From the NCBI GenBank assembly GCA_000091205.1, contig AP006492.2: a DNA stretch of 64,000 nt. The stretch is one strand, 5' to 3'. Every line of letters begins with the position of its first letter. Positions within the stretch are counted from its first letter, which is position 1. The position numbers were made by a program, and so were the translations under genes. Source of the DNA: Cyanidioschyzon merolae. Its lineage: Eukaryota. The notes beneath the pieces were generated by a model. That model was given only the letters and a program-made list of their open reading frames with translations, did not search any database and was not told the origin of the DNA. Below are positions 300-63,359 of the stretch, in pieces.

Positions 300-1610
300 A
301 CTTCAATATGCAGTGTACTCTATAGATCGTAGAAGAATTGCTTGTAGGATACACATTCTTTCCTGAAGAGTTCCAGGAGAACTCGAATTCTCCTTCGGAT
401 GAGTCTTAACACAGTACACAGATGCGTGATTCACACGGAAAGAAAGAATCAGATGCGCTCCGCTCCAGAAACCGATATTTTCAGAGACTTTTTGAGGTCA
501 CTGGTAGAGAACAACTGATTGATCGCTATAGAGAAAACCCGAGCGGCGAGCATGGACACCACGGGAGTCTCTGTTTCTCAACAGCTCGTTCCCGGGATCC
601 TGAAAACACTGGGATACAGTCGGAAAAATGAATCCTATTTCAAGCACGGCCGTCTTGCACGGAAATCGCAACGGTAGCATTCCTGGAAAGCCGCTATCCG
701 GAGAAAGCACCGGAACGTCGGTTTGTTTTTCAGTCGATGACACTTGCTTCGGATGAAACGGTCAGAACGTATATTGGTAATCGCGGAGACAGAGCATGTT
801 ATCTGTACGAGTGAGCTCGAAGAGAACAAAGATATCATCATCGATTCTAGCTAGAGTGGATACACTCGGCGGCGTCAGTCGCGCTCGTGGAGCAGGCTCG
901 CTCGACAGCACCCATTGGCCTAATAATTGAATACTTTTCACCTGAGGTCTGGTGACGTCCTTCTATTGAACAACGTAGCATTTCGCCATCCACTTGCGGT
1001 TGGGATTCTGCCGATTCGATCAAGGGTTAGAGTAGCTTTCCATTCCTGCGCACACTCCATGTTTCAACCCTATTGCATGAGTGTTTTCTATTGTGAATCC
1101 TATTGATCGCTTCAGTGGGCAAATCGCAAAATCGCTCTGTACAGGGTGACACTCTGGCACATGGTGTCTTTCATCCGCATTGACCATCTCCTCCGGCAAG
1201 GCCCTCATATAAGGGTATATAGAAGCGCGTTCATTTCCAAAAAAAAAATAAGGAATGAGCCGCAGTGCGCACTTCAGTAGGCCGAGATGGAGCGCCGGCA
1301 GCCAAGCGCATCGGTAATAGAGAAGCACGCAGAGCTGACAGAGCCCCAAATGGTACTAATGGCACGAGTTCGAGGAATCGGTGTACTGATGAGTTCCATT
1401 AGAGGCAATGCACGCATGGAATTCATAAACCGAGGCGTCAACGCCGCCACCAACATCAGGAGATGTTCAGCGCTCCAGACGAGACCTGCGGAGCATTCGC
1501 GAGCGAACGTTATCGTGATGCTTCTCAGGCTCCAAGTTTGCATGGAGAAACTGTAACCGATAGCAGGGAGCCGGTAAAAAAGGCTGAAAGGCGTCTGGGC
1601 ATACCTATTA
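300..1610 (+). mobile_element. Copy A of a ~1.3 kb repeat family encoding a degraded TnpB/Fanzor-like RuvC nuclease remnant (approximate ends)
   Basis: ORF 1287..1556 ends in ...EFINRGVNAATNIRRC..., which matches the RuvC-III R-D-x-N-A-A-x-N-I motif of TnpB/Fanzor. ORF 422..631 (...LCFSTARSRDPENTGIQSEK) and flanking DNA (cccagtgttttcagg at ~590 in reverse complement; tatagatcgtaga at ~330) match copies at 31.5-32.8 kb and 48.8-50.2 kb in inverted orientation. The reading frame is broken by stops. Confidence 0.45.
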
Positions 1611-3946: not shown

Positions 3947-4086
3947 GCCTGCGCACGAAAAGTGCCGAAGAAGTACAAAATGTTGACTCCGAAAAACGTC
4001 AATCCAAAAGTTGCAACGTGAGCATGCTCAGAGCTCCGCTGTGCGATGCAACGCAGCACTGCCGCCCGGTGCATGCGTTCCAGTCC

Positions 4087-4395
4087 GTGCGGTAAAATCG
4101 ATGCGGTAAGCAACATATTATGAGACACGAGTGGACAGTAATGGATCGATTGCCTTGCATGCCGTGCGGTAAGATTGATGCGGTAAGTATCCAATTATGG
4201 GACAAGAATGGTCAATAATCGATCGATCATGATGCATGTCGTGCGGTAAGCTTGATGCGGTAAGTATCCTATTATGAGACACTAGTGAACGACCATCCAT
4301 AGATTGCCTTGCATGTCGTGCGGTAGGAACGATGTGGTTAGCATCATATTATGAGACAATCATGATCAATAATCGATCGATCACCTCGCACGCTA
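4087..4395. repeat. Tandem repeat, 4 copies of a ~77-bp unit (gtgcggtaaNNtNgatgcggtaagNNNc.attatgagaca...)
   Basis: Units begin at 4087, 4164, 4241 and 4318, each with the gtgcggta(a/g)g core. They lie 140-450 bp upstream of the FkbM methyltransferase start on the minus strand. Confidence 0.85.
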
Positions 4396-30742: not shown

Positions 30743-31273
30743 TCATCGCGAGTCGTCCGTTTCGGTACCCCATACACGATAGGGTCGCTTCTGCAGCGCG
30801 GAATTGTAGTATCGTTCGTCGAGTGTGACCTCGTCCGCCAACCAGGTCGGCCGCTCAAACGCCGTCTCGGGGGTTGGCAGCTCGATCTCCGCGAGGATAA
30901 GAGGAGCATTATCACCCAAGAACTCATCGATCTCCCAAACAAGGCCAGCTTCCTTTGCCGGTATTCGATAGCGCACTTTTTCGATAAGTGGCTGTACACA
31001 GAGTGTGTTCAACAACTCTCGAGCGTCCTCGACTGGGATCGGGTACTCGTACTCGGCCCGCGTGCAACCGTGGGTGCGTCCCTTGATCGTCAAGAAGCCG
31101 CTCATGCCAGCAACACGGACGCGTACGGTGCGGTCGGGTTCACTGCACAGGTAGCCTTGCGCGAGATGTGTGCCCTGCGAAGTGCACAACAGCCGACGAA
31201 CTTGGTCAGCGTGCACCAGAAACTTGCGCTCAGTCTCGCGGTTCGCTGCGCGGTTCACCCCACCGTGTTGCAT
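30743..31273 (-). CDS. CYTH-domain protein (triphosphate tunnel metalloenzyme; bacterial CyaB / thiamine-triphosphatase-like)
   Basis: 176 aa from the ATG at 31271-31273. N-terminal ETERKFLV (the EIERKFLV-type start of CYTH proteins), ...GYL...VRVRV...GFLTIKG...EYEYPIPVEDA...IEKVRYRI...WEIDEFLGDN..LILAEIELP, a typical CYTH layout. The track ORF extends upstream to 31435 without homology. Confidence 0.55.
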   Translation of the reverse strand: MQHGGVNRAANRETERKFLVHADQVRRLLCTSQGTHLAQGYLCSEPDRTVRVRVAGMSGFLTIKGRTHGCTRAEYEYPIPVEDARELLNTLCVQPLIEKVRYRIPAKEAGLVWEIDEFLGDNAPLILAEIELPTPETAFERPTWLADEVTLDERYYNSALQKRPYRVWGTETDDSR

Positions 31274-31479
31274 TCGCGGAGCACTGGATCCTAAAAGCAC
31301 CGAGATTTTCGAATCTAGCTTTAGAGTGTGAACTCGAGGAGGAGGAGACCACCTGAACGTGGTGCGCCCAAGAAACGGCCGTGCAGCAGGCACGAAGAGC
31401 ATCATCAACGTCGTTCGAAAGTCGAACGACGTCAACGGTGTACAGTAGTGGCGAGTGACCCGCCCTAGTCAGAACGTCT

Positions 31480-32750
31480 CCAACTGACGCGCAGAAGCCC
31501 CACAGTCCTTCACAACCGGCCACCTACTACTGCGTCCAACTTTCTCTCAAATAATTCCACTTTGAGAGATTGTCCAATAAAGTTCATTCTTGTCGAGTCT
31601 GGAGGTCTCGTCTGCAGCACCGCACATTTCCTTCTATGGATAGCGGCATTCAAGTCTCGCTTCACAAACTCCGTACGTTTGTTGCCCCCGTTGTTTGTAC
31701 TTACTAATGCAACAGGCCCTCGAACTCGCGCCCTTCTTTCGATTTGCTGCTCAGTCACCTCTTCGTGCTTTTCTACCGCCGATGCGCTCTGCAGCCTGCT
31801 GCCCATCTCGACCTTCTGAAGTGTGCATCCCAGCTGATCCCTTATGTTTTCAAATTAACGCAAAGCTTTATGCGGTTAGGTGAGAACAGTCCCCGAGGGA
31901 GTCGGACCTGCGCAGGAAAGACAAAACGTGCCACCGGTTTGTATCCGTGTGCTGGAAGCCGCATTGATTCGCCCAGTGGATCGATCATTCCGTTGCACGA
32001 TAGAAAACACACCTTCAATGGGGTTGAACCACCCTGTGTTCTAAGGAATGAAAACCAGCTCTATCCAGACAGAATCGCCAAAAGATCGAAAACGAAGGAT
32101 AACGGTGAAACGCCACGTTGTCTCATAAAAGCTTGCCGCCGGACGTCAGAGAAAAGTCTTCTATGACTCGACAAAGTGGTTGGTGCTATTCTATGACCCT
32201 TGTCCTCGAGTTCGATCGTACACACAACGAGCTCACTGCTCCACGAATACCGATATACGCTCATACCATCTCGTCCGAAGCATGTCTCATTTACTGAAAA
32301 GACACACAGTCGTCCCCTTGCTAACATCGATCGTCACTTTCCGGGAACATTGGTGTAGTTGCGATTCCAGTCGAAGATGGCGGTACGCAAACAAGGACTT
32401 TTCTGGCAATTGTGTCCCAGTGTTTTCGGGGCCACTCGAACAAGCTGCTGAGAAACAGCGACGAGCGTGGCGGTTACTATCGTCGCTTTTTGCTGTCCGT
32501 AAGGCGATCAACGAATCGTTGTCTACCATTGACAGCAAGCGTTTCTCCGAAAATGGGTTTTGGCGTGGTGCGCATATACGCCCTGCCTTCATTGTTCTGA
32601 ACCATCAGAGCACTGTGATATAGCTGACCTCAAAGATGAATGCAGTCCTCCTTGCACTGTTCAGTAAAGAATATATCCCATAGGCCATTCGTCTACGATC
32701 TATACGGTACATTGCATCGAAGTTTCGTTCTCTCGCTATACATTGCGAAA
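31480..32750 (-). mobile_element. Copy B of the TnpB/Fanzor-like repeat family; retains recognisable RuvC-I/II/III-like motifs but is interrupted by stops
   Basis: Minus-strand ORFs: 32287..32592 with LLSMVDNDSLIALRTA (RuvC-I-like, compare GIDLGxxxLAT); 32061..32327 with LVVCTIELEDKGHR (RuvC-II-like, vvIEDL); 31510..31806 with EFVKRDLNAAIHRRKC (RuvC-III RDxNAAxNI). The DNA is homologous to copies A and D (for example gaggtctcgtctgcagcaccgcacat, and cccagtgttttcgggg at ~32410). Confidence 0.5.
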
Positions 32751-33832: not shown

Positions 33833-34678
33833 ATGAAGCGTAGCCTAGCAGTGATTATTGTCGCAATTCTGCTGTTTGGGTACTCAGCGGTCGTACGGGC
33901 CGCGGTTGTCCGTCGCGCAGCCCCGGCACCTGCTGCATACATGCGAGGAACGGCCTCGGAACTGAAGTTCCGCAGCCAGGCACGTATACGTCTGCCGCCG
34001 CCGCCTCCGCCTCCGCCGAAGCCAACGCCGACGCCACCGCCCGCCGTTGGTGGTGCCGGTGGCGCAGGCGGGGCTGGTGGCGCTGTAGGTAATGGTAACT
34101 ATGGAGGAGCGGGTGGATATGGTGCTTTTGGCGGTGTCGGAGGTAATGGTGGTTTTGGCGGTGGCGGCGGGAACGCTGCCAATGGCGGAAATGCTGGCGA
34201 TGGAGGCACTGGCTTCTTCGGTGGTTCCGGAGGTGCAGGTGGGGACGGTGGATTTGGCAGCTTTGTTGGTAACGGCGGCTTTGGAGGAGACGGTGGAAAT
34301 GCTTCATATTCGGGCTTTGGCGGAACTGGTGGCAATGGAGGTGACGGAGGTGATGCGAGCAATGGAGGATATGGTGGTAATGGTGGGTATGGAGATGGCT
34401 ACGCATTTGGTGGCACCGGCGGTGATGGCGGTGTAGGTGGACCCTCTGGCAATGGTGCTGACGGTGGTGTTGGAGGCGAGGGTGATTTTGGCGGGTTCGG
34501 AGGCACTGGTGGCCCTGGCGGGTTCGGTGGCGCAGTTGCGAACGGTGGCTTTGGAGGCAATGGTGGATACGCATTTGAGGGGGGGAACGGAGGTAATGGT
34601 GGCGTGGGCGGCGGGGGAGGCCTTGCAGCAAACGGCGGCAGAGGAGGCAGCGGTGGCAATGCTAGCTCATTTTATTGA
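33833..34678 (+). CDS. Secreted glycine-rich repeat protein (signal peptide, Pro-rich linker, then ~200 aa of GGxGG-type repeats)
   Basis: 281 aa, ATG confirmed. N-terminus MKRSLAVIIVAILLFGYSAVVRA, then PPPPPPPPKPTPTPPP, then (GG[AND]GG[FYV]GG)n with periodic Asn/Asp/Tyr/Phe. The Pro-rich ORFs on the complementary strand are its mirror. Confidence 0.5.
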   Translation: MKRSLAVIIVAILLFGYSAVVRAAVVRRAAPAPAAYMRGTASELKFRSQARIRLPPPPPPPPKPTPTPPPAVGGAGGAGGAGGAVGNGNYGGAGGYGAFGGVGGNGGFGGGGGNAANGGNAGDGGTGFFGGSGGAGGDGGFGSFVGNGGFGGDGGNASYSGFGGTGGNGGDGGDASNGGYGGNGGYGDGYAFGGTGGDGGVGGPSGNGADGGVGGEGDFGGFGGTGGPGGFGGAVANGGFGGNGGYAFEGGNGGNGGVGGGGGLAANGGRGGSGGNASSFY

Positions 34679-36901
34679 TCGAGCAAGACTTCTACGTACG
34701 CAGACCAACGTTAATGCCGGGATGGATTGAATCTTTTGCCGAACAGGGCCATCATTGGAAAGCCGCATTCGAGAGGATGGCCTCAACAATATCGGGCACC
34801 TAAAGGGCGCACGTCAGATTACAAAAGTCTTGGAAATTTTGGGAGTGCTCCACTTCCGTCCATCAGTCCGGATCTGCGTCTGCTTCCAGATGCAAAAGAT
34901 ACCACGAACGCACGGACGTTGTTGTCAGCACCCAGTATCCAACACAAATTCGGAAGGTCGGCTCCATCGTCGATTTCGATGTCTTTTTTGCAGCGCTGCT
35001 GGAGAAACTCCTTTGAATTCGCTTGCCAGTACGGCAGCGGATTCGCGATCTGGTGGCATTGAGGAATCAACAAGGGCGCTGGGCACTATCCGCCCGAGAG
35101 CGCGTTTTCCTTGCAAGACGCCTTGCCTCGCCGAACGCACTGTAGCAAGGTGCGCGCGTTAGGCCTCAACGGAAGGAGCATTATGTATCGAGCGCGCCCA
35201 AAATTTGAGAGTCCGCGCCCTTGGGGCACGTCACCTACTCCGGTCTTGTGGAAAGGTCCGCGCATGCGTGGCATTCGCGTTCTACCCTCTTACACTGAGC
35301 ACTATGCGTCGAGGCATTTCAGCGGCATGGATCCGTCACAGTCTAGATGTAAACCCGAAAAGTGCTTCTGTTATCGGTGTACGATCAGGAGGAACTCGAC
35401 TAAAATGTCAGGTATGAGGAGCTGATAGATGCTACCCCGGTTTGCGTTCCTGTCCTTTGAGTGTGGTGGGACGAATGTCGACTGGCAAGGCAGTGATCGG
35501 CGGCGAATCCGTATTTCGGCACAAGGTGCTGCCACAGAAAAGAGGACCCAAAATTTCGCGTTCGTAGAGGGGCATCGTGAACGCAGAGACAGGTGTCATG
35601 GACGCCCACGACAAGTTTACCGCAGTCACATGTGCAGGCGGGCACCCAACCGAAGTTGTTTGCGCAGGTGCAAAAGATGGCGTTTTTCCACCGGGCTCGC
35701 AAAATCGTCAAGCGCTCGTGTCGCGACAGCGAATCAGCGTTCTGCATGATACGTCCAGTATGTAACGAACGCCCTATCTGTCACGTCGTATTTTTGGTCA
35801 CTTGATTGTCCAGCATACTTCTAGAAGCGCGTTGCTGACTTTCCGAGGATATCGCACAGCATAGCTCCTCTCCTGTCCGGCGTATGAGAAGCAGACGGGG
35901 GCTCTTGTACAAGAGTCGGCGCTCCTACTGTTCGCCATGGAGGCCCCGAGTCGAACTTCTGTTCAATATATAGTCTAGATAGAGAGGCTGGCAATACCCA
36001 GCGCCCAGAGCTCTGATTCTTCGTGCCTCATGAGATCGATGGGCGTAGGCAATACCGATTAACGAGCAAAAAGCTGTGGCAGCGAGCGAACGTGATTCCT
36101 TGTAAAGTCTAGTCAATACAATCGTGTCGCGCCGACTAGCAACGACCACATATCGCAATGTCAGTGCTGGTGCAGCGTCGCATCGACAGTCGGACGCACT
36201 GGCATAACGCGCTGAACGTCAGACATGCAAAGGTAGGGCAGGAGACCAGGAAACAGCGCGGTGTCCATTTGATTCAGTTTCGTCCCAACAATCACGAAGC
36301 AACGAATGAGTACCGAAAAGGTTTCGTGCATACAAAGCGAAGAATGCATCCACGCGCAACATTCGCCAGAGCAGATAGAGTGCATTCCCGTATTGAGGCA
36401 ACCATATATAAGACGGATCTTCCTTCAGTGCATACATTTGGAGCCCAAGTCGTGAGCCCTTGTTACGATGCCCTGCGTTTGCACGCGCATCATCGAGGCA
36501 AGTGTGCCGCCAAACGAATACTTCGCAAAGCGACAACGCTGCGTGACGCCTCGCCCGTGCGCACTGCACCTCAGCGGGCGACGCTCCCCGTAATGCACCA
36601 GCGATCATATTGGGAACGTGAGTTTCCTTAATCCTGCTGCGGCACAGTGCGAGGTCGCAGCGACAAGAAACCTCGGCAGCATGCTCCCGAAATCACCAGC
36701 AGGTTCGCAGGTCCTATCTGTTTCACCCGCTAAACGAACATCTCGAGTCCTCTGCCAGAATGAGGACATCCATGCACAATTCTAGTGAGCGTATCCGCGA
36801 GAGGCCGCCAAATAGCCATAGCACGTGCTTAGCGGCGGCGGAGTCCCGGAGGTAACGCACTCGCTATCGCTGTGCGCGCAGCCTCAATCAGGTCTGTCAC
36901 A

Positions 36902-37510
36902 CTATGATCCGCAGTTTGGATCGCAGGATGAATGGTTAGCGTGATCCGCAGTTTGGATCGCAGGATGAATGGTTAGCGTGATCCGCTGTCTAGGCCTCCG
37001 CAGCGGTGCCAGCGCCCAGGGCGGCATCACTTCCGCCGTGCCTGTAATCGTCAGTGAAACTATCGGTACCCCAGCTTGCTTTGCGACCCGAAACGGGCGC
37101 TGTTTGAAAGCACGGAGCATCCCGTCTTTCGAGCGCGTGCCCTCCGGAAAAAGCAACAGCGACACCCCGCGTTCCAGTCGCGAAACCATTTCTCGAAAGA
37201 CCCGCAGTTGATCCCGTCGACTATCCCGCTCAATCCCGATTTGACGAGCCATGCCCACCGCCCAGCCGATACTAGGGATCGCAAAAATGCTTCTTTTGGA
37301 GACAAACTTGAAAAACCGGCCTAGAAACGACACCGTGTAGATGTCCAGGTACGAATTGTGATTGCACACATAAAGCACAGTGGCATCAGGCGGAAGCAGA
37401 TTCTCCGTACCAACGGCACGCTGATGAATACCAGTGCTCAGCATGGACAGTCGCATGCAGAGCATCGCGATCCAGTCGTAAGCGCGCGCTCGGTATGGAT
37501 CACGGATCAT
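36902..37510 (-). CDS. PlsC-like 1-acyl-sn-glycerol-3-phosphate acyltransferase (LPAAT); probably disrupted, with a 5' end abutting a transposon relic and a 3' end frameshifted by a 37-bp duplication
   Basis: 202 aa. Acyltransferase motif I VCNHNSYLDI (NHxxxxD), motif III FPEGTRS, and IVSLTITG. No N-terminal membrane anchor is present. Its ATG (37508-37510) overlaps the stop of the repeat-family ORF 37507..37908. Confidence 0.6.
   Translation of the reverse strand: MIRDPYRARAYDWIAMLCMRLSMLSTGIHQRAVGTENLLPPDATVLYVCNHNSYLDIYTVSFLGRFFKFVSKRSIFAIPSIGWAVGMARQIGIERDSRRDQLRVFREMVSRLERGVSLLLFPEGTRSKDGMLRAFKQRPFRVAKQAGVPIVSLTITGTAEVMPPWALAPLRRPRQRITLTIHPAIQTADHANHSSCDPNCGS
36906..36979. repeat. Perfect 37-bp tandem duplication (gatccgcagtttggatcgcaggatgaatggttagcgt x2) followed by a diverged partial third copy
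   Basis: Units at 36906-36942 and 36943-36979 are identical. Removing one unit restores a longer frame, ...TADHSVTDLIEAARTAIASALPPGLRRR-stop (ending ~36832), in place of the present ...TADHANHSSCDPNCGS-stop. Confidence 0.9.
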
Positions 37511-39000
37511 TCCATACGTTTCTTGCCGTTGGGAGTTGTACTCACTAATGCAAGGAGTCCATGAACTTTCGCCCTCCTTTCCATTTGCTCCTCCGTCAGC
37601 GGTCCGTACTGTGCTATATCCTCAGGACTCCGTTGGCATTTTTCCATCTCCACTCTCTGAAGTGTGCAACCAAGTTCATGGTGTGTATACGACGCTCGGA
37701 ACTCATCTACAGGTATTGTAACGAAACGCCGTGCGCACTCCCTGCATGTTCTTGTCGTTGGAGCTGGCGTAGTTCCTTTTTGGGTCTTCCAGCGCCCTGC
37801 CCCAAAAGCTACTACGAGCCTTAGACTCTCGTCCTCCTCCAAGGCGCTCAAGTGATTGGAAAAGATCGCGAATGCACGCTGCTTCCCACAGTACAAATTC
37901 ATTCGCAAACGAGCTCACCGAGGCTCGGTATACTCCTCCCACAGCGCATCCCAATGAGCAACGCGAACTTCCATGAATTCCCGAAAAGCTTCAAAGTCCG
38001 CGCCCTGGCTCGTCACCTCGCTCATAGCTTCCAGGTGATCCCTCATTCCTGCATTCCACGTCTCGATATTTTTCCTCGCATTCGTTATACGGGATTCTCG
38101 ATAGTATCTCGCTCTCGAGAACCTCAAAAGAAGCATATATTTCTGACGTATGTTGCCGTCGGTGCAATCTTCCGCACGCTTGGGTACAGCGATGGATATG
38201 ATATTCTTGTTCCAGGGGTTAAGGCCGACGACAAAGTCGTTCTCGTGGGGATTATACATCCAGTGGCCCGCCTTCTTGTTTCCGTGCTTCGGCAAGTGCG
38301 ATAACGTACACGGGATAGGACGAACTGCCTGCAACCGCTGATAGTCTACACATATGTATACCCCATCGTTGTCGATTGTCCCCGTGAATACCTTTTTTTC
38401 GCCGGTCTGGGACGCTTGAAATCGAAGATATTCTGCCAGTAGGAGTCCCGGTCTTCGCCGATGATTTCTTTGTTGCTCACACCGAGCGCTGGACTGATCT
38501 CCTTCATGAAGACGGAGAGGACTCTAGAGTCAATAGTAACAAAATGTGACTTGGACTCGCGTAAGCGAACGACAATGAAGCGCATCTGGAGAAGCGATTG
38601 AATGTCATCTCTCCAACGCTTCATTTTTTCCGTACTCAGCTCCATTTCGGCCTTGCGTTCGAGTTCTCGGTCCAAAAACATGAAGTAGGAGAGAATAAGG
38701 GGATAACATCTCTCTTCGTTTTTTCTCATATCTGACAATTTTTCTCTTGGGTTGACAAGCCCCAAGACCGAACGATGCTTTTGATGAGTCGCGCGAATTA
38801 CAGAAGCCCTATTTTTTCTAGAGCGTGATTTCCCCTTGTCGATGAATTCGATCTGCTGTTCATGCTGGCGATCGTCCTTCACACCGTCGATGACTGCCCA
38901 CATCCCTTCACGAAACAGGCCCGGGTACAGCGCAAAGACGGCGCGTGTCATGAAAAATTTGGGTATACGATCTTATTGTTCCTCACATTCGTGAGGAACC
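37507..39000 (-). mobile_element. Copy C (more diverged) of the TnpB/Fanzor-like family: a pseudogenised nuclease ORF broken into three or more pieces, with a terminal hairpin
   Basis: ORF 37507..37908 (...LVVAFGAGRWKTQKG..RFVTIPVDEFRASYTHHELGCTLQ...EEQMERRAKVHGLLALVSTTPNGKKRME) aligns at protein level with the C-terminal fragments in copies A and B (EKHAELTEPQMVLMARVRGIGVLMSS.. / EKHEEVTEQQIERRARVRGPVALVST..) and stops just before the RuvC-III motif. ORF 37915..38334 has FVVGLNPWNKNIISIAV (a degenerate GIDPG..N RuvC-I). ORF 38346..38951 continues upstream. A 9-bp-stem hairpin gttcctcac-attc-gtgaggaac sits at 38979-39000. GC content is lower than the surroundings. Confidence 0.4.
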
Positions 39001-41217
39001 TCATTGCCCTGTATTCGTAGGTATCTGCGTCACCCCTGTATCGCGCACCGTAGAAGCGGGAGCTTGCGTAATTTTTCGGAGAGCATGGACTGTCTCATTT
39101 CTCCTCGATGTTTCGCAGGTGCCAAACATCAACTGGCTGACAAAGGTCATGTTGAAAACTTCTCCCGGAAACATCACTGTTTCGATGTGCATTGCGTTGC
39201 GGTATATCTCCCTCCGCAAATGCATCAGTCCCGAAAAAAGCGTTACAAACATAGCTTGAGCACGAATCGCCATCGTTTCTGAAGGCCTGTCGCAACGTTT
39301 CCTTGTATGGATCCTTAATATGCCCAAGAAGACAGAATTTCATCACCATTTCATCGATCAGTCGTCTTTCTTGCAACCTTTGACGAAGGGCCTCCCGTTT
39401 TTGCTTCTTCGCGTTAGCCTGTTCCTCTGCACTCGGCACTGTCCTTTGTTCTCTTCCGGCGGCCGGCAATACCGGTCATCCAGAACCCCATACCTCCAGT
39501 TGCATAAGTTTCGGTTTTTATATAAAACACTAGGGACGCTTCTGCTTTAAACGACGACAAATCAGTTAAATACTTTACCTTGAAGGTTGAAACACGATTG
39601 AAGTAAAACCTACACTTTGCTATCATTTGATCGCAAATACAACTGGCCCCGACACAGCTGTAGGCCAAAAAGTGGCCATTATCGCGTTTCTCTTCGCCGG
39701 CGAGACAGGTTGCGTGTTGTGACGGCCAGATATCGTGGTGCGCGTACGGGCCATATAATACAAAAAAAGAACGGAGTGTGGCCAATTACTTGCAACGAGG
39801 TAACGGTTCCTTTTCACATCTATTGCAGACCTTGAAAAGAGGAACCTTTTGCTCATGGTCTAACGATTACCTTCGAGGTGGAAGGTCCCACACACCGGAA
39901 GACGCTACCTGCTTTTGCTCCGCGTGACTCTGAGTGGTGGAGAATGTGACGCACCTGAGCGTCTCGTCCGAATCGCGTTTGGTTCTGGGACTAGGAGCGG
40001 ATGTGCTGCCTATGGGCGTCACCTTGGTCGCGGTGGACTCCTAGGATACCGCTTCGCGGTACCGCAGGCTGAAGGTCTGCATGTACAGCTTGGAGGCTCC
40101 CAGAAATGTAAATAGCCCTGATTCCGTTTCGCGTGAACCAAGCCTCTTCCGACGCCCTCAGTGGTATTGCGAAGCCGTTCTGTCACCGTGGTGCATTAGC
40201 ACCAGCGGTGTAGGTGCTATTCCGGGTGCTCAAGGAAGGTTAGGTGCACCGTTGAACGTGCGAAACAAGCAGTTCATTCGAGAGAAAGTAGGGGTGATGG
40301 AACGTGGAGAAAGAGTGCAGCATGAGGACGCATTCCCGAAAGCCAATATCGATCAGGCAATCTGGGATATATGGTCAGTGGAGACGTTCTGTCGAACCAA
40401 AGAAAGCATAGCGCCGGAGGGAATTCCCTAATGGCTCTGGTGTTCGACGCATCGCCTTGGCAGATGCATATGCGCTGAAATCATCCCGCAGGAGGAAATT
40501 CCCTTATACTTCCGCTGGGCCGGTGCCCGCGGGCGGCAAACGTAGCACTTGCGCGTTTCCACTGCATGATTGACACGCAGTTACCGCCGTGGAGAGGCAC
40601 ACGTTAAGCTCGTTTGGAGCAACTGACCAGCTGCAGTCATATATACGTATCTCATCAACGGAGCGTCTTCAGAGACGTGAGCAAAGACGCGCAGGTCGTT
40701 TTGCGCTAAGCTTTAGAGGCTCGTGCGCGGTCTAAGATAGACGTCGACGCGCCGGTGTTGAGGAGAACGAAAACAGCGCCCTTGTGTGTGTAGTTGTCTG
40801 TCGAAAGACGAACAACTTCACTCCAGTAGAGCGTAAACGGGCGCCCCGGAGTCACGGATTTTGAAACTTGAGAAAACACTGGTGCGAAAGCACTCGTCTT
40901 TTCCACGGACTACACGCGTCACGGCGAGAGCGGGGCTCGTTGCTCATCAGTCGCGGCCGGGACGATTCTGAACCACGGAGACGTGAGTGCTACAGCCCAG
41001 TACACTGGATCAAGCGTTGAATGCACGTGCTCCTGGGGATATTGATAACGGCGCTTCTGATCGCCGCTGCGTTCTGGGTCGCATTGTCGATGGTGCGTCT
41101 GGAACGGCGCCTTGCGGAGCACGAGCAGCAGGCAACACAACGTTTATTGGAACCGCGTAAACCTGGTGAGCGCAGCGTGCGCGCGGAAACGAGCACTGCG
41201 CTCTCGTAGCAATACAT

Positions 41218-42582
41218 ATGGAGCGCTTGGGTGACGCCTGGGCGGGTTTCGGGAACGGCAACTGCAACTGCGGTTACAGTGACTGTTGCGGCACTGGTGA
41301 AATCTGCAAGCATGGTACGGAGGTACCGATGCAGGTATGCGGCGACGTTGCGGAAATAGACCGTACGACACCGCAAGCAGGTTGCACGGCATCACCGGGC
41401 TCGGCATCGGCACCGACTCGCCAGACGAGGCGACTCACGAATCGATTTGGTGCAGCTGTTCTCGCAGCTGCTCGCGGGTGGACAGAGCGGCCACTCTCGA
41501 CAACAGCCGCTGATAATGAAGCGGAGCCGGAACTCGCCGAGAACCTTCCATCGCACTTACCGTTGCGGAGACGGCTGATCAGCCGTACCGGCGTGAGCGA
41601 CTTGCCAGTGTCCACCTCAGAGCACGAGTTTTGGGACCTCTTCTACCGACAAAAGCGTGACCGATTTTTCAAACATCGTTACAATCTGCGAGCAGCGTTC
41701 CCAGAACTTGTACCGCCAAGCGTTCGGGCGGCACCGCATCGGCACGTGCCCGTGCATGAGCCACTACGCCCCCTGGTACCCGATGCGCGACACGTGCTGG
41801 AGGCGTCGCCAGACGAGCCGTCTCACTGGATGCTTGATGATTTCGAGCCTGCGCTAACGCACGGTAAAGTTGTTGTCGCCGAGTGCGGGTGTGGGGTCGG
41901 GAACGCGTTGATCCCGCTGTTGCGTGCGAATCCGGATCTCTTCTTCTTCGCCTTTGACTACTCTTTGGTGGCGCTACGCCTGCTGCTGTTGCAGCCTGAG
42001 TTCGACCAGGCACGCATCTACGCGTACTGCGCTGATCTAGGCGCGCCCGCTGCTCATACAACCGCCTTCGAAGCACCGCATGCGGCTGCTGAGACGCGCT
42101 CCGCAGCAGAAGCACCAGTCCGGAGTGCGCCTGCTGCCCAGCGCTGGACGACGGGCGTCTATCGTGCCCCGCCGCTGACTTGTGATTTCGTGACCTGCGT
42201 CTGGACGCTGAGCGCGCTACCCGTTGCATCGTTACCGCTGGCGGCATCGCGACTAGCTGCCATGCTGAGGCCGGGCGGAGCGCTGCTGCTGCGCGACTAC
42301 GCGGTTGGCGACCTCGCAGAGCTACGGCACCCGGCATGTGCGCGCGTTGGTACCGATCCGCAGCGTCACGAGTACCTCCGTGGCGACGGCACTCGCGTCC
42401 ACTACTTCCAAGTGGCAGAGCTAGAGAATTTATTCCAGCAAGCAGGTTTACAAACTGAATATGCACATATCGTCGAGCGTGAAATCGTGAACCGCCAGAA
42501 ACGACTCGTGATGCATCGCAGATGGATTGCGGGCAAATGGCGGAAACCGGATCTCGCACCAGCGCCAGCACGCATCCGGTGA
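41218..42582 (+). CDS. METTL2/METTL6-family methyltransferase (tRNA N3-methylcytidine methyltransferase-like) with an unusual Cys-rich N-terminal extension
   Basis: 454 aa. HEFWDLFYRQKRDRFFKHRYNLRAAFPEL matches the (F/Y)WDxFY...FFKDRHWL..EFPEL signature. AECGCGVGNALIPLL is the SAM-binding motif I. CDFVTCVWTLSALP, GGALLLRDYAVGDLAELRH and YLRGDGTRVHYFQVAELENLFQQAGL are also conserved. The N-terminal 60 aa read GNGNCNCGYSDCCGTGEICKHG; an alternative ATG is at ~41329. Confidence 0.7.
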   Translation: MERLGDAWAGFGNGNCNCGYSDCCGTGEICKHGTEVPMQVCGDVAEIDRTTPQAGCTASPGSASAPTRQTRRLTNRFGAAVLAAARGWTERPLSTTAADNEAEPELAENLPSHLPLRRRLISRTGVSDLPVSTSEHEFWDLFYRQKRDRFFKHRYNLRAAFPELVPPSVRAAPHRHVPVHEPLRPLVPDARHVLEASPDEPSHWMLDDFEPALTHGKVVVAECGCGVGNALIPLLRANPDLFFFAFDYSLVALRLLLLQPEFDQARIYAYCADLGAPAAHTTAFEAPHAAAETRSAAEAPVRSAPAAQRWTTGVYRAPPLTCDFVTCVWTLSALPVASLPLAASRLAAMLRPGGALLLRDYAVGDLAELRHPACARVGTDPQRHEYLRGDGTRVHYFQVAELENLFQQAGLQTEYAHIVEREIVNRQKRLVMHRRWIAGKWRKPDLAPAPARIR

Positions 42583-47046: not shown

Positions 47047-48839
47047 CTGCAGTCAAAAGCACGTCCAGCTCGGTGCGGTGAAATCTGTCGCTCCGGGACA
47101 AGTGTTGCGCTAGATTGGCCCGCTTGTGAGCGAAACGGCCAGTCGTCAATCGCGCAGATTGTCCACTATGGGTGTCAATGGGCAGTTACGTGGCGCGGTG
47201 CTGTCGAAGCCGAGACGCGATTATCTGGCGGTGCCAAACATAGCTCCTATGTCCGTTAGGATCATATAGTTCCATAAATGCACTTTCCGCGATGCGCTTG
47301 GATCATGGACGTGCCTCCGGGGCGGGGGCGTATCGCGCGTTCGCGCTGGTGCCCCTCGAGCGCTGGTTCCGTTCTGCGGTACGCAGCGAGGCATCTGAAC
47401 GCGAGTCCGATCGATGCGGAACTCGGACACGTTCGCTCTGTTCCCGCGACTTGGTTTGTTCTCCGAAAATTTTCTAGATGCATAGTCCTGAAATTTGATG
47501 CGCAGCGAAAATCTATTATGGACTCATATGCAGTTCTCAGATGCTCGAACGTATTTTCGGATTAGGTTCTGTTGACGTTCTGCGACTGCTGGCAAGCGAT
47601 GCGTGACCGGAATCGAGATGATTCGCGGCGCACTCGAGCAAGGATTCATGAAATAGCTAATATTGCTGTGCAATGCATACGTTTTGGCGTTTACCTCTCT
47701 CCCTTTCTTACGTTTAACATGCGCACTTCGCACATTCATCGACGTTTGGATCTTTCTCTTTCAAGGCCAGTCGCGGGCGCAACGAAGCGCGGCCATGGAT
47801 TGACGCAGACAGCTACTGAAAATCGTCTGTAAACGACTTGCTCTCCAGCTCATCAAGAGAATTTGCAGAATGTGTCATGTCCAATAGCAATCTCCATTCG
47901 AAACACATACCTTCATTTGGTACAGGTTATCTGCAACACCGCATTTGGCAGCTGCATGATGGCTCTCACGAGATACGCTTCAAGAGGTTCGCGTCGCTTT
48001 TCTTTGTATGCAAAGGAGTGCTGCGCTCGAAATTTGGACATCGCAACGATGCTCTTCGGTAAACAGACCGTCACCGATATGTTGGAATGAAGTACCGACA
48101 GACTGAAATTTTATGGTTTGTTCCCTAGGCTGTTTGTTCCTTCCAGCACTTGTTTCATCCTGGAGAACATTGTGTTTTACGAATCCTCTATTGAATGAAA
48201 CAGCAAGCAGTCGCTTGTGCAAGTCGCAGAGACAACGCAGATACCTGCTGCATGCGCGGAAACATTGCAAGGCATTGCATGGCGCCACGTGCACCAGTCA
48301 AAGGCACGTATCGACCGATCATAGGAGCGTTCACGAGCCACCGGGTGCTGGTCAGATGAGCGGAGGGTTTCGCGGAAATGCGGGAACACCCGCACACAGT
48401 CAAGCCACCGCTGCGAAGACGCACCGATGCAGTATACAAAGATAGAGAGAATGACAAACGAAGCATAGATAGGGGCGGGTGACTCTGCATGAAATGCGTT
48501 GACCACAAGCGGAAGCAGCTCAGTGGGGACGTTAACGCTGCCATCAAGATTCCGCCAATGCTGATAGCGGAACTGGTGGGAATGCAGTTACCAACGTATT
48601 CGAATATGGAGACTCGTATGCGAAAAACAAGGTACAGTGGCAGCGGAACCCTGCAAACACCAGTATTGGTGCTAGAGCGCAGAAACAAAACCTATATTGT
48701 GTACGCCCGACTCTGCGAACCTGCTCTATGTTAACCGAACACGGCAGTATCCAGAATCCCTGAATGCGCTGCTGCGGTATGCAAGCCAATGAAACAGAAA
48801 ATGTCCAACGAGTTTCTAGGGTAAATGAATGACTACCCG

Positions 48840-50150
48840 CTGACGCCTTCCAGCCTTTTTCGACCGGCCGCCTGCTGTCAGCTTCAGTTTATCCAGGTAT
48901 ACACTGAGCTCGAGAGGCCGACCGAAAAACCTGCATCGCGTCAGTTTCAGAGGTCTCGTCTTCAGCACCGCACATCATCTGATACTGATTGCACCTTTCA
49001 AAGTCTCGGTTCATGAGCTCCTTGCGTTTTTACTGCCGCCGGCAGAATTCACCAGCGCAAGGACTCGTCGAACTCGTGCCCTCGGTGCCATTTCCCGCCC
49101 TGCCAGCTCTCTGTGCTTTTCTGTCGCCAAAACGGTCCGCTGGCTTCTCTCCATCTCGAACTTCAAAAGTGTACACCCTGGTTCATTCCTTATTCATGAA
49201 AATGAATGCACCCCTTTAAGCACTCGGGTGAGGAATTTCGCAGCAGGAGAGGCACTCGCGGAAGACAGACAAAATGTGCCCTGGCGTCACCGTGTCTTGA
49301 ACGCCTCGGCGATTCGTACAATGGACCGATCAACGCGTTTCACCATAGAAACCACTCCTCTTTATAGCGTTGAATCTCGGAGAGGACGGAAGAGTGAAAA
49401 GCAGCTGCACCCCGATAGAATCCGGAAAAGCCCAAACGCAAAGTGAATGCTGAAATACTACGTTGTACAGTAGAAGAACGTCGCCAGAGGTCCGGGGAAA
49501 AGTCTTTAACGAGTCGACAGCATTGCTGCTGTTCTACGAGACTTCTTTACAAGCGAAACTGAGGCCACCAAATGGATCCACTGCTGCTAGAATAGAAGAT
49601 GATAACCTGTATCTCTTCGAGTTCGGTCATAGACACAACGGGCTCCCTCTCTGCAAATACCCATGGACGTTCCGACCGTATCCTCTGAAGCAAGTCTCAT
49701 ACACTGAAAAAAATAATCGACGTTTCTCTGCATCATAGCGATCGCGACGTTTCAGGAACGCTGTCGCTGCGATTTCTGTGGAAGACAGTCGTGCGTGAAC
49801 GCGGACTTTGTTGTGACTGTATCCCAGTGTTTTGAGTACCACGTGAACAAGCTGTTGAGAAACAGAGACACTTGCTGTGTCTACGATCGTTGGTTTTACT
49901 TTCCATATGCTGATCAACGGTTCGTTTTCTATCATTGACGATGAGCAGTCTTTCATAATATTTTTTGCGCAAAGCGCATCTACATGTGCCTTTCAGTAAT
50001 CCTCAACCATCTAAGCACTATGATATGACTCACCTGAACAAGAAATACAGTCCTCCTTGCACAGTTTCGCACAGAATACATCCTAGAGAGATTTCGTCTA
50101 TGATCTGTACGGTACATTGCATTGTGGAGTCGATCGCCTGCTATCCACCA
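48840..50150 (-). mobile_element. Copy D of the TnpB/Fanzor-like repeat family (heavily degraded)
   Basis: DNA homology to copy B over more than 1 kb in the same orientation. Examples: gaggtctcgtcttcagcaccgcacat at 48960, ctcgaacttcaaaagtgtacaccc at ~49155 against B ~31810, cccagtgttttgag at ~49825 against B ~32415, and cagtcctccttgcacagtttcgcac at ~50050 against B ~32640. Minus-strand ORFs 49627..49956 and 49733..49972 carry LLIVNDRKRTVD and KCLCFSTACSRGTQNTGIQ, matching the A and B fragments. Confidence 0.45.
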
Positions 50151-52255: not shown

Positions 52256-52782
52256 TCACCAAGGAGGGAGGCGACTCCCTCGATTTATCCTAACAGCCAA
52301 GTTTCTCCAGCGTGTTGTGCAGCGAAGGCAAGCCTGCATCCGCAGACTGTCCGAGCACACACTGACGACGAGACCCGATTCTACGTCGGGTGAACCACGC
52401 CTTGAGCCGACGCCCTCTGGGGTATAGAAAAGCCGTTCTGTCTCTATGATGCATCTGTACCAAAGGTAAAGACGCCATTGCGGACTATCTTGGCAGGCAT
52501 TAGGTGTGCGATAGAACGTTTGAGACGACCAGTATATCCGAGAAAAAGTATAGGTAATGTAACTTGGACGCATTGGGTAGTATGATGAACGATTTCTCGA
52601 TGACCGTTAACCATTCCGCATTCTTCGATCCCTGATCCTTGTGAATGGTTTGTCATCGGAGAACAAAAACCATCCTCGTCAAGTGCACGGCGATTGATTG
52701 TATACAGCATTGCTGGGTGCTTTTCTGCAGCCGTTTGCGGGCAGTAGTTATGTGCTTCGTTTTCACATCGTGATTCTTTATC

Positions 52783-53382: not shown

Positions 53383-54372
53383 GATAGCGGGCAACGCCAA
53401 CGAATGCCTCGTTCGATACGAGGCACCCGCTCTCTGGCTTGCCGAGAGAGCCTCCTCTATGCTGCGATGACGTTGTGAACCTGTCGTGTTGACGGAGCAG
53501 ACACAGTCCTGTCACTGGCTGGCGGATACGTGCGCTCGGAACGGAACACGACCAGAAAAACAAACCCGTGGCGAAGCGTACACAGAGGTGGCAGTGTTTT
53601 GCGGCAAGCGCCGTGCATTCGCTCTCGAGCCACGACATCGAGTCCAGTAACTGAATAGATTCTAGAGTGTGCGATTTTGGCGCTAGTGCAATTGCTCTGG
53701 AGCATCGACATCGAGTCCATGAGTTGAGCATCTTCCAGACTATGCAAGTTTCGTGCTAGCTAGTGCGGGCGCTGAACGAGAATCGGAGTCCGCGCTATGC
53801 CGGCATACGAGCCCACGAGCGGGGAAGGCGGTCGACTCCGCGAACACTCTACATGAGCGGTGCCGCACCCGTTCCTGGGAATAGATGCGGAACGACGCGG
53901 TGGTGTCAATACGGTCGACGCGGACTCGGAATGCACGGAATCGGCCTCGTTGTATTCCCTATGAACGAATTCGTGCTTTATCCAAAAATCGACGCCTCGG
54001 GAAGCGCCGTTGCTATGAGGCTACCAGCCGGTAGCACCGGCACAAGCCGGCCACCGGATTTGTGTGCTGTTTGGGGTCAGCGACGGCGGATCCGTCCATG
54101 CGCTTCTTGGCGACGCGCGCTGGAGTTAGGTCCGATGGCGCATGGAGACGGACACCGCGCTGGACGCCCATGGACGGCATGGAAAGCACTTGCCTCGCCA
54201 GGATTTTCGCGAGGGTTCCAGTGGCGCAGTGCTCGCTCGAAACGCCCCTTATAGACACAGATTTGCCCTGTACTCTCGACAGAGCGTTTCGACTCGCATG
54301 TCGTAGTCGGTGCGCGCAGCGGCTCCACGGGCAGGCCACTGTGTGCGCTCCGCGAGCGAACCTCGCACCTGA

Positions 54373-55731: not shown

Positions 55732-56003
55732 GGAATGCACGTCTTCTGTTCTTGGAGAGGTTGCTTACACCTCCAAAGGACGCTAGTGCAGGTCCGCAGG
55801 AGGCGCACCCCTCGGCAGCATCGCCGATCGCCGTTGTCGGACGCCCTGTTGCCGTCCGAATTCGGCGGCATGCGCGAATTGCGGCTCGTGCTAGAAACTC
55901 TTTTGTCTACGCGGCTGGACTAGTGCCGAGGCGGAGCGCTCGCTCCAAGTACCCTTATCCGGAACCCAAACACGCTTGGGGCTCTGTCGCTTCGTCCAGG
56001 GGA

Positions 56004-56565
56004 CTAGCAGCGTCTGTTTGCGGTGATGATGACAAGCGCTTCCAGACTGCTCCCCATGCAGTGATTCCCCAAAAGTCTCTTCGAAGAAAACTTGACGGAC
56101 ACGCTTCTCCTCGACGGCTAGCAGCGTCTCTTTGCGGCGATGATGACAAGCGCTTCCAGACTGCTCTCTATGCGGAGATTCTCCAAAAGTCTCTTCGAAG
56201 AAAACTTGACGGACACGCTTCTCCTCGACGGCTAGCAGCGTCTCTTTGCGGTGATGATGACATGCGCTTCCAGACTGCTCCCCATGCAGTGATTCCCCAA
56301 AAGTGTCTTCGAAGAAAACTTGACGGACACGCTTCTCCTCGACGGCTAGCAGCGTCTCTTTGCGGCGATGATGACAAGCGCTTCCAGACTGCTCTCCATG
56401 CAGTGATTCCCCAAAAGTCTCTTCGAAGAAAACTTGACGGACACGCTTCTCCTCGACGGCTAGCAGCGTCTGTTTGCGGTGATGATGACAAGCGCTTCCA
56501 GACTGCTCTCCATGCAGTGATTCCCCAAAAGTCTCTTCGAAGAAGGCTTGAAAAACACGCATATA
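56004..56565. repeat. Minisatellite: ~5 tandem copies of a 114-bp unit
   Basis: Units start at 56004, 56118, 56232, 56346 and 56460 (ctagcagcgtct[g/c]tttgcgg[t/c]gatgatgaca[a/t]gcgcttccagactgctc...). All six frames are open across it, which is an artifact of the repeat. It lies ~270-830 bp upstream of the GPAT start. Confidence 0.85.
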
Positions 56566-61328: not shown

Positions 61329-62226
61329 AGACCAGAACCTCCTGGTAACGAACGCCCCCTGATTCTTGTTCTAGTCGAACGCAAAACTTGTCATCAATGC
61401 GTTCAGGCGTGCGCCAGGACGCGCGCTGCTGCAGTGCATCGTGGCAGGCATCGGCGGCAGCTGCCCTGCGGGACGTTGGATGCGCTGTGCAGCGGCGCAA
61501 CGACGTGCGAGGCGGCGGCGGCGGCGGCGACGGCGCAAGTCGTCCCCGCCAGGAACGGGGTCACAGCATAGGTGTATAGCTGTCGGTGTCCATTGAGCAG
61601 TGGGATTAGAAGATAAACGTATTTACCCATGACAAGTGATAACGATGCGAATCCTTGTACTGTTCGGATATGCAGACACTAGCTGGAGGCACTTTCCGAC
61701 AGACGTTCTCTGTTAGCGTTGCGAAAATCGGAAGCTCGTCCCGAATCGATCCGTCGTAAGGCAGCAGAAGCAGCAGCAGCACTGAGCAGGTGTCCAAGAT
61801 CGCACGTGTCCAGCTCTGGATTCTCGCGTGGGCCTCGAAGGTAACGTCAACTCCGGCGAACAGGTTCCGTTTCCATCTGAAAAAGTCCCTTTTCGATGCT
61901 GTGGGTATATTGATGCACGCTTACGCGCTGCTCGTGTCCGTCCGAGGTATCCGGCGATACCGGAAGCGTGCCGTTCGCGACCACTGGGCCCAGCCTCGAC
62001 GTCTTTTGGAGCCTCATGATGCGTGCTCCATGACAGTACGGCTGGATCGGTTCACGTATCGTGTCGTGTACGAAGGACCTCCGGTCCGATTTTTCCCGGT
62101 CGTTGCGCACTCATGCCGCTGGGTTGTCCCCAAGCGTACAGAGCCTCGTGAATCGCGCCGGGCGTGCGTCCATCGAGCGATAGCCCCGCACCAAGTTGTT
62201 AGAGGCGGCGCTAACCGCACACGCAC

Positions 62227-62442
62227 CAGCACATCGACTAGCTGCTCGTCGGGAGGCATTTCATCGAGCAGGACGAGCACGCAGGTTCACGGATTCAGCA
62301 GCACATCGACTAGCTGCTAGTCGGGAGGCATTTCATCGAGCAGGACGAGCACGCAGGTTCACGGATTCAGCAGCACATCGACTAGCTGCTAGTCGGGAGG
62401 CATTTCATCGAGCAGGACGAGCATGCAGGTTCACGGATTCGT
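62227..62442. repeat. Tandem repeat, 3 copies of a 72-bp unit
   Basis: cagcacatcgactagctgct[a/c]gtcgggaggcatttcatcgagcaggacgagcacgcaggttcacggattcag, with units starting at 62227, 62299 and 62371. Confidence 0.85.
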
Positions 62443-63359
62443 TCACCTCGTCACTCGCGTAAGCCGAGCAAAGGTCCGCGTATCGAAACGTCAACACACG
62501 CGATACATGGTGGTGAAGGAGAAACGCGCTCCCCAGAATTCTTTCTAACTGCCAAGTGTCTCCAAGGCAACGTGGCGCGAGTGCAGGTCAGTGTACGCAG
62601 GCTGTCGGAGCATAAATCGATAACGATGAATACCGGTCCCGCATGGAATGAATCAAGTCGCATGCTGATGCCCTTCGCGGCATAGCAAAGCCGTTCTGCC
62701 TCCGTGGTGCACCTGCGCCAGCGCCACAGGCGCTATGGAGGGTGCTTATGAAAGACTCGACCCACCGTGGAACGTTCGACACGACCGTTTTCTCCAGACG
62801 GGTGCTTGGTAAATGCAACTTGGGGGTAGCGTCAAGCACGAGCAACGCTTTATCCAATCTCTATATTCTTTCGTGCCTTCGCAGGCATCTCCAGTCTGTG
62901 TAAAAAACCCCTCTGTCCATCGAGAGAAATCATCGACGCCAGCGCATGATGCCGCTGCGCGCGCGCTGCACCGCACCGCACGGGACCATCGCCAGTCCAT
63001 GCATTTCGTCTGAGATAGCCAGCGGCGATTCCCGTTCCGGAACGTGTAACGTGATTTGTTCAGTGTGAGACAAATACAGCTTCGTACGCAGCTTGCATTC
63101 GTCTTTGGAACGGAACATGGATCCTAACAGGAAGAAACTGTGCTGTTTTTTGGGATTATTTTTGCCAGCAGGCAAGCTGCTAACCAAAAGAAAGCAACGG
63201 AAACGTGAGAGTAGCGCTTTCGCGGGGAGGTGCTCGCCTGCGCTGACGCTCTGCGCAGTCACGACGTCAGAACAGACGCCGAAGCCTGTACAGTCAACGG
63301 CTGCTGAAGACTCCGCGGAAAGCGAGCTGCAGCTGCAGCTTCTGGGTCCGTTGCGTAGG

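Follow-up and report, generated by a model that had tools for sequence, protein, structure and literature searches.

We find that CMJ021C, a gene annotated as a probable 1-acylglycerol-3-phosphate O-acyltransferase (lysophosphatidic acid acyltransferase, LPAAT) in the model red alga Cyanidioschyzon merolae, is probably the decaying remnant of an ATS2/LPAT1-like plastid LPAAT. It still occupies its ancestral locus and carries two independent lesions, a 5' deletion that joins it to a copy of the Fanzor1 transposon CMe-1A and a frameshifting 37-bp tandem array at its 3' end. We assign this reading a probability of roughly 0.7. The analysis covers a 64,000-nucleotide stretch of contig AP006492.2 (assembly GCA_000091205.1), hereafter called the window, which was compared with environmental and relative contigs (numbered with the prefix L) and intact proteins (prefix P). 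Coordinates of the relevant features are collected in Table 1.

The open reading frame (ORF) encodes 202 residues followed by a stop codon and is an exact match to the C. merolae 10D protein BAM80171.1. We infer from the literature, rather than from a database record, that this protein is CMJ021C, the sole chromosome-10 (CMJ) gene listed as LPAT (PMC4928187), to which the name LPAT1 was later given (PMC8152781). A prior reading of the letters alone, hereafter the sequence-only reading, had described a PlsC/LPAAT-like protein with catalytic motifs, and this description stands. The Pfam family PF01553 (Acyltransferase) matches the ORF at 86.6 bits against a cut-off of 23, and both NHNSYLD and FPEGTRS could be located, the HX4D and FPEGTR motifs which the protein shares with the chloroplast LPAATs (ATS2/LPAT1) of the PlsC family. 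In line with this assignment, the top named matches outside the Cyanidiophyceae are plant LPAT1/BAT2 proteins labelled "chloroplastic", with 40-47% identity and E-values of about 1e-38.

Intact versions of the gene are found in close relatives. A 373-residue protein from environmental assemblies (P0001) aligns to residues 23-204 of Thermotoga maritima PlsC (5KYM), and the 202-residue ORF is 92% identical to it over residues 158-350. Further intact proteins come from Cyanidiococcus yangmingshanensis (P0003, 371 residues) and Cyanidium caldarium (P0004, 339 residues). A comparison with orthologous PlsC proteins had been proposed as a check of the sequence-only reading, and these three relatives indeed reveal both the lost N-terminus and the C-terminus that is restored when the 3' lesion is undone. 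The intact allele was recovered from eleven assemblies (L001 and L007-L016), as a single uninterrupted and unspliced ORF in both genomic and cDNA contigs. The order of genes, namely RabGAP-like, methyltransferase, LPAAT, glycine-rich and CYTH, is the same in the window and in Cyanidiococcus (L002). Because the flanking gene order is kept, CMJ021C can be placed, on synteny, at the ancestral and orthologous locus, and is not a stray copy. We also considered whether the intact 373-residue gene could be a paralogue within 10D. This was rejected, because the intact-allele contig L009 runs collinear with the window between 37509 and 33881, and the corresponding 90% cluster contains a single 10D protein, the 202-residue one.

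At the 5' end, DNA homology to the intact allele begins exactly at 37509 (blastn, L001 599-2103 against window 37509-35964, 93.3% identity), and the alignment to the CMe-1A consensus stops at 37511, on the other side of the junction. The junction reads AAACGTATGGAA followed directly by TGATCCGTGATCC, with at most one base of visible microhomology. The A at 37510 differs from both the transposon consensus (G) and the intact gene (C). As described before, the annotated ATG (37508-37510) overlaps the TGA (37507-37509) of the upstream Fanzor-like ORF (37507-37908). Intact relatives carry about 157 additional N-terminal residues, in which a long extension of hydrophilic character is accompanied by a strongly hydrophobic stretch. 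The extension comprises about 130 residues in P0001, P0003 and P0004 and is transit-peptide-like; it would be a transit peptide, with the intact form targeted to the plastid. The Kyte-Doolittle peak of P0001 lies at residues ~137-158, whereas the 10D ORF starts at the equivalent of residue 158-160. Both the hydrophobic anchor helix and the plastid-targeting extension are missing from the 10D ORF and from the 64-kb window, in agreement with the previously noted absence of an N-terminal membrane segment. The missing helix corresponds approximately to the first of the two helices that anchor 5KYM in the membrane.

Those intact haplotypes that reach far enough upstream (L007, L008 and L009) have the 3' end of a CMe-1A element (nt 3169) 101 bp upstream of the ATG. 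In L007, a segment of about 861 bp (2026-2886) is without counterpart in 10D and consists of roughly 264-280 bp of element, the 101-bp spacer and 478 bp of coding sequence. The transposon relic reported at the start of the gene is present as described, and the 5' lesion is a deletion rather than an insertion into the gene. Alternatively, the cell might still produce the full-length protein, through splicing across the transposon or because an insertion merely pushed the 5' half upstream; an upstream exon beyond the element had been suggested. We regard this as having a negligible chance of being correct and found no point in its support. No trace of codons 1-157 was detected anywhere in the 64-kb window, using tblastn with four relatives including P0001 and blastn with L001, and in the assemblies of relatives the intact gene is unspliced, in genomic as well as cDNA contigs. 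Further, the transposon itself is cut at nt 2905, so that sequence was lost and not displaced.

The second lesion, first described as a perfect 37-bp tandem duplication that shifts the reading frame, was recovered by Tandem Repeats Finder. After two identical units (36905-36941 and 36942-36978), a third one breaks off after 8 bp (36979-36986), and an exact 37-bp repeat is far beyond chance. When one unit is deleted in silico, the C-terminus changes from one ending in ADHANHSSCDPNCGS to one ending in ADHSVTDLIEAARTAIASALPPGLRRR, each directly before the stop codon, and the restored tail ADHSVTDLIEAARTAIASALPPGLRRR matches the C-termini of P0001, P0003 and P0004. The restoration of a plausible tail had thus been predicted correctly, while the predicted extension by about 25 residues was too long: 12 unrelated residues are replaced by 24 conserved ones, which amounts to a net gain of 12. 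In the single-copy haplotypes L009 and L010-L014, the 8-bp direct repeat GCGGATCA occurs twice, exactly 37 bp apart, and L001 matches it at 7/8 positions. Short direct repeats of 8 bp at a distance of 37 bp are a classic substrate for slippage and unequal exchange, and the duplication likely arose by replication slippage or unequal exchange between them.

The number of units differs between haplotypes: L001 and L007-L014 have 1, 10D and L017 have 2.2, and L003 and L018 have 4.3. L003 and L018, which are about 99% identical to the window, show a few differences between their repeat units. In arrays of at least 3 units, the frame stops at a TAA in the third unit, yielding 203-residue products on the L003 and L018 contigs. 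Judged by this variability, the array is a small variable-number tandem repeat (minisatellite), of which every expanded state is predicted to truncate the protein.

The 5' junction of 10D is present in nine environmental assemblies (L003, L004, L005, L017, L018, L020, L021, L028 and L030), all about 99% identical to 10D. The presence of 10D-like Cyanidioschyzon in JGI-assembled Yellowstone data has been published (PMC11662350). One of them, L017 (1010 bp), is especially informative. It matches window positions 37851-36842 at 99.5% with zero gaps, spanning both the junction and the two-unit array, and a single residue separates its product from the 10D protein; an exact match to the latter was not obtained from the contig index. 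Assemblies typically go wrong at perfect tandem repeats and at transposon borders, and the reference could in principle owe one or both lesions to a repeat that was collapsed or expanded, or to a false join at the transposon. Because L017 comes from a different sample and a different assembler and is gap-free across both lesions, they are not assembly artefacts. The junction is additionally found in eight further contigs, and the 202-residue product was PCR-cloned from 10D genomic DNA (PMC8152781) and had the predicted size. We thus give an error of the reference assembly almost no credence. From the assemblies, both lesions can be regarded as real alleles shared with wild 10D-like populations. 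The identical duplicate had been interpreted as a recent event, an allele or an assembly error; the allelic interpretation is borne out by states of 1, 2 and 4 units, while assembly error falls away with L017.

One of these haplotypes, L018 (JGI 3300050385, corresponding to 37560-36987), combines the truncated junction and a four-unit array with intact-type bases at 14/14 variable sites between 37330 and 37099. We considered it as an early and little-decayed truncated haplotype, which was rejected, as the intact-type bases are found at silent and replacement sites alike. The mosaic reflects either natural recombination or gene conversion between alleles, or a chimeric metagenome assembly.

To characterize selection, replacement and silent changes were counted at 633 aligned coding sites with Cyanidiococcus as the outgroup, the truncated lineage being represented by 10D and L003. 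These counts are complicated by possible recombination between alleles. The truncated lineage as a whole has accumulated 15 replacement and 10 silent changes (rate ratio about 0.5), and its stem alone 10 replacement and 3 silent changes. In contrast, the intact lineage shows 2 replacement and 13 silent changes (rate ratio about 0.05; Fisher p=0.007 for truncated versus intact). Among the replacements are W>C, P>Q, A>S, I>S, M>V, H>R, G>R, W>R and P>S, and P0001, P0003 and P0004 agree with one another at the majority of the positions concerned. Five, namely W>C, P>Q, G>R, W>R and the block IV P>S, fall on sites invariant among the compared Cyanidiophyceae. The last of these affects the proline of the VPIVPLTI block, which is present in all relatives examined as well as in 5KYM and is lost in 10D. 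It is the conserved proline of acyltransferase block IV (V-P-I-V-P) in the motif definition of the LPAAT literature. Moreover, three wild truncated haplotypes (L003, L004 and L030) have FPKGTRS in place of FPEGTRS, a Glu>Lys change within a catalytic motif. Since its truncation, the coding sequence has been under strongly relaxed constraint. Its sub-neutral ratio would fit constraint that acted before truncation, or weak residual constraint.

The intact allele also gives an indication of what the deletion did to expression. Three intact-allele contigs (L010, L011 and L012) terminate in A runs that are missing at the same place in the genomic contigs L007, L008 and L009. Because this poly(A) is non-templated, L010-L012 can be regarded as cDNA-derived, which indicates that the intact allele is transcribed and polyadenylated. 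The 5' ends of L010-L012, L013, L014 and L016 lie 140-163 nt upstream of the ATG and fall 39-62 nt inside the 3' end of the transposon. The transcript start of the intact gene is consequently located in the segment that is deleted in 10D, and 10D would have lost the promoter-proximal region. As a separate observation, divergence between the window and L009 climbs toward the breakpoint, from about 1% at 34700-35999 to 2.8% at 36000-36399, 5% at 36400-36840 and 5.6-6% in the coding region. Suppressed recombination around the structural difference, or old age of the alleles there, would be expected to produce a gradient of this kind.

Relative to intact orthologues at the syntenic locus, CMJ021C therefore carries two disabling lesions of the kind by which pseudogenes are recognized, a 5' deletion and a 3' frameshift. 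We propose that the 5' deletion ended at CMe-1A nt 2905 and at about codon 158 of the acyltransferase, and would have eliminated the 3'-terminal 264 bp of the transposon, the spacer, the transcript start and the 5' untranslated region (UTR) together with the transit-peptide-like region and the N-terminal hydrophobic helix. A chance ATG at the junction, in the acyltransferase frame, would then have been taken as the start codon by annotators. At the 3' end, slippage or unequal exchange between the GCGGATCA repeats would have duplicated the 37-bp unit, turning the 24-residue C-terminus into 12 unrelated residues. The resulting allele would be a functional pseudogene or, at best, an enzyme of weak residual activity.

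Published work on CMJ021C, where it is named "ER-localised LPAT1" (ER, endoplasmic reticulum), can be accommodated by this scenario. A GFP fusion put the protein at the ER, and the plastid LPAT role was given to CMF185C (Mori et al. 2016, PMC4928187). We propose that the ER or cytosolic location results from loss of the targeting region and that the very low native expression results from loss of the gene's own transcript start. The effect of overexpression would reflect residual activity of an open frame with intact catalytic motifs.

A different interpretation, implicit in the literature, is that the truncated gene is a functional, re-purposed enzyme which, by losing the transit peptide and the first helix, moved from the plastid to the ER or cytosol, acts in triacylglycerol synthesis and is stress-inducible from the dead transposon. 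Several points speak for it and weigh against decay. 10D has kept both catalytic motifs (I and III), and the 190 codons upstream of the array are without stop or frameshift in 10/10 truncated haplotypes read. FLAG-tagged CMJ021C, overexpressed about 520-fold in 10D, had the predicted size, co-localized with the ER and raised triacylglycerol 3.3-fold (PMC8152781). The native transcript was up 2- to 133-fold in four transcription-factor overexpression strains (Takahashi et al. 2021, PMC8152781). The 202-residue product may thus retain activity and be regulated. Neutrality is also neither clearly reached nor firmly rejected (ratio about 0.5, p=0.085), the departure from it becomes stronger (p=0.007) when four silent changes that resolve to neither branch are assigned to the truncated one, and within the truncated lineage 5 replacement changes stand against 7 silent ones. 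An intact second copy elsewhere in 10D would likewise count against decay, the N-terminal search having covered the 64-kb window. Concerning the deletion itself, the L007 element and copy C, as we call the transposon copy adjoining CMJ021C, are only 59-85% identical, close to the value obtained when their respective identities to the consensus are multiplied, and on this comparison look like different family members that are not orthologous.

The re-purposed enzyme is, on the other hand, difficult to reconcile with the replacement of invariant residues, including the block IV proline in 10D and the FPEGTR glutamate in three wild contigs, with the 10 replacement versus 3 silent changes on the stem of the truncated lineage, and with a lost conserved C-terminus whose repeat units vary freely in number from 2 to 4. 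In addition, the protein was not detected in a 2026 proteomic study (PMC13306765), and 520-fold overexpression tells little about native function. In view of these findings we consider re-purposing, the main alternative, unlikely. Decay of the plastid gene remains our preferred explanation, and the young pseudogene proposed by the sequence-only reading is upheld as far as decay is concerned, given the lesions and the relaxed constraint; pseudogene status is not proven, as the overexpressed ORF did raise triacylglycerol. With respect to the 5' lesion, the dissimilarity of the L007 element weakens a simple single deletion of ~0.85 kb affecting an orthologous element, because the two copies are no closer to each other than random members of the family. 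A second element, ectopic exchange or loss of a longer segment may have played a part.

More doubtful still is a combined scenario in which the truncated allele represents an evolutionary re-targeting to the ER or cytosol, with stress-responsive transcription initiated from the Fanzor element and a share in triacylglycerol build-up, and coexists and perhaps recombines with an intact plastid allele in natural Cyanidioschyzon populations. If this were true, the L018 mosaic would also be evidence of genetic exchange in an alga in which sex is not known to have been reported.

Compared with ATS2/LPAT1, the 10D copy is without the first ~157 residues and the conserved C-terminus and has the block IV Pro>Ser change. 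It resembles unitary (non-processed) pseudogenes that arise through transposon-associated deletion in having lesions at the ancestral locus and relaxed constraint, and also in the occurrence of both functional and damaged alleles in related populations. It differs from them by keeping an open 202-codon frame, the catalytic motifs and published overexpression effects. The array, in turn, resembles coding-region minisatellites generated by slippage at short direct repeats, with which it shares flanking short direct repeats and a polymorphic copy number.

Neither the gene and transposon families nor the two mutational mechanisms are new. What is apparently new is that the CMJ021C studied so far is an allele damaged twice, that intact natural counterparts of it exist, and that its frameshifting repeat varies in copy number. 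In a full-text search of the literature naming CMJ021C, no mention was found of the truncation, the frameshift or an intact wild version of 373 residues. As decay of this kind is ordinary, general interest is modest and the relevance lies mainly in lipid work on C. merolae, strain 10D of which is widely used. In this field, the lipid map of the alga shows CMJ021C on its ER side, and the gene has been suggested to be rate-limiting for triacylglycerol production and a target for engineering. Its ER localization may simply reflect the lost targeting region, while its very low native expression, like its induction in the overexpression lines, may mean that it depends on the adjacent transposon. 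If our preferred reading is true, 10D is a natural knockout or partial loss-of-function strain for an ATS2-type plastid LPAAT, a loss that is presumably tolerated because CMF185C supplies the plastid activity. The natural intact alleles are available as a resource for complementation or engineering.

Table 1. Features at and around CMJ021C, in window coordinates.
Feature	Position	Strand	Basis or remark
CMJ021C / BAM80171.1, truncated probable remnant of a 373-residue plastid-type LPAAT	36902-37510	-	Protein match, PF01553, identity to P0001
Start codon straddling the deletion junction	37508-37510	-	TG from LPAAT codon 158 (CTG)
TGA closing the Fanzor frame, in acyltransferase-derived sequence, not the natural stop of the element	37507-37509	-	Junction comparison
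Acyltransferase motif I, NHNSYLD (HX4D), intact	37343-37363	-	Residues 50-56; aligned to Thermotoga maritima PlsC 5KYM
Acyltransferase motif III, FPEGTRS, intact in 10D	37130-37150	-	Residues 121-127
10D-specific Pro-to-Ser change in the VPIVPLTI block (VPIVSLTI)	37055-37057	-	Variable site 37057
37-bp tandem array, 2.2 units, frame-shifting	36905-36986	.	Tandem Repeats Finder, 100% matches, no indels
Sequence that once coded for the C-terminus (SVTDLIEAARTAIASALPPGLRRR plus stop), shifted out of frame	36829-36904	-	Intact relatives
3' UTR, down to putative poly(A) sites at ~36264 and ~36256	36256-36828	-	Sites inferred from intact-allele cDNA contigs L010-L012
CMe-1A transposon copy C	37511-40393	-	Consensus nt 5-2905 of 3169, 78.6% identity
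Methyltransferase gene BAM80172.1, divergent orientation, synteny anchor	41218-42582	+	Gene order shared with L002

The transposon at the junction was identified with the 3169-bp CMe-1A consensus taken from the supplement of Bao & Jurka 2013 (PMC3627910). CMe-1A is present in about 150 copies that are about 80% identical to the consensus (PMC3627910), a value which the identity of copy C over its 2.9 kb fits well. The consensus encodes a 734-residue Fanzor1 protein. Copy C spans residues 1-667 of it across three reading frames, with at least 2 frameshifts and at least 3 in-frame stops, and thus does not contain an intact ORF. The published Fanzor motif is D-X(125,275)-[TS][TS]-zinc finger-X(5,50)-RD (Bao & Jurka 2013, PMC3627910), and the corresponding consensus residues are D431, E603/T606-S607 and R670-D671. 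Copy C retains VDEFRAS. Its RuvC-I aspartate (D431) has become asparagine at 38218-38220 (GLNPWNKN versus GADPGNTN in the consensus) and the C-terminal RuvC-III RD motif (NRDFNAAINI) is gone through the deletion, so that the catalytic motif is not present. Compared with the CMe-1A family at large, copy C is dead, and its 3' end is cut by a deletion that also truncates a neighbouring gene.

Searches of Pfam and the PDB with single ORFs of the element or with a narrow family profile (A1) returned nothing significant, and an AlphaFold2 model of one family member was too poor for a fold search (mean pLDDT 37.8). An exhaustive profile search yielded 1525 representative relatives of the element protein. 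A second profile (A2), built from 40 diverse full-length members in which the D, E and RD-N-A-N positions are invariant, matches the solved Fanzor1 structures of Parasitella parasitica (9CF0, E=1e-20), Spizellomyces punctatus (8GKH, E=4e-12) and Guillardia theta (9CER, E=2e-7). Weak matches to PF07282 were obtained for 16/40 members. Because profile A2 matches solved structures and CMe-1A has been described as such, membership of the element in the Fanzor1 family is settled, which substantiates the earlier identification of a Fanzor-type relic at the start of the gene. Hypermutation resembling repeat-induced point mutation was considered as the source of transposon divergence and rejected, the substitution spectrum not being dominated by C>T/G>A.

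Other pieces of the same family occur in the window. CMe-1-like fragments at 1255-1511 (+), 31430-31838 (-) and 48839-49186 (-) have a common start at consensus nt 2737, which corresponds to residue ~611 of Fanzor, and are confined to ~260-410 bp at the 3' end. The shared start suggests a derivative repeat family made of 3' ends only, and not three random truncations. A direct repeat (32597-32742 and 50002-50147, 75% identical) lies about 0.8 kb upstream of two such fragments. At 31399-31838, the 3' end of a fragment abuts the start of the CYTH-domain gene (ORF 30743-31435, -), and geometry and orientation match those of the CMe-1A element that precedes the intact acyltransferase gene of relatives, the last ~60 bp of which contain the cDNA 5' ends. 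CMe-1 3' ends may commonly provide transcript starts for downstream genes. Further, 52374-52658 (-) and 62664-62851 (-) are copies of the first ~280 bp of CMe-1A, a segment that corresponds to the separate short repeat TE-N2_CMe (Bao & Jurka 2013, PMC3627910).

Upstream of the divergent methyltransferase gene, two environmental contigs (L023, at its position 2393, and L025, at 479) depart from collinearity with the window at the same base, 40591/40592, where each is joined to the 3' end of an unrelated gene, encoding a C2/PRT_C protein and cytochrome c, respectively. These joins are probably chimeric assemblies; alternatively, 40591/40592 marks a transcript 5' end about 626 nt upstream of the methyltransferase ATG. 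Of six ORFs compared by exact sequence, four are identical to 10D proteins, the other three besides BAM80171 being BAM80172, BAM80175 (CMJ029C) and BAM80176 (CMJ030C), which places the window on chromosome 10. Additional tandem arrays are located at 55988-56557, 4086-4383, 62224-62439 and 53613-53758, with periods of 114, 77, 72 and 73 bp. Finally, a glycine-rich ORF with GGxGG repeats (33833-34678) is overlapped by long antisense proline-rich ORFs, and this region shows 3-4% divergence and indels in a comparison of haplotypes whose identity elsewhere is about 99%.

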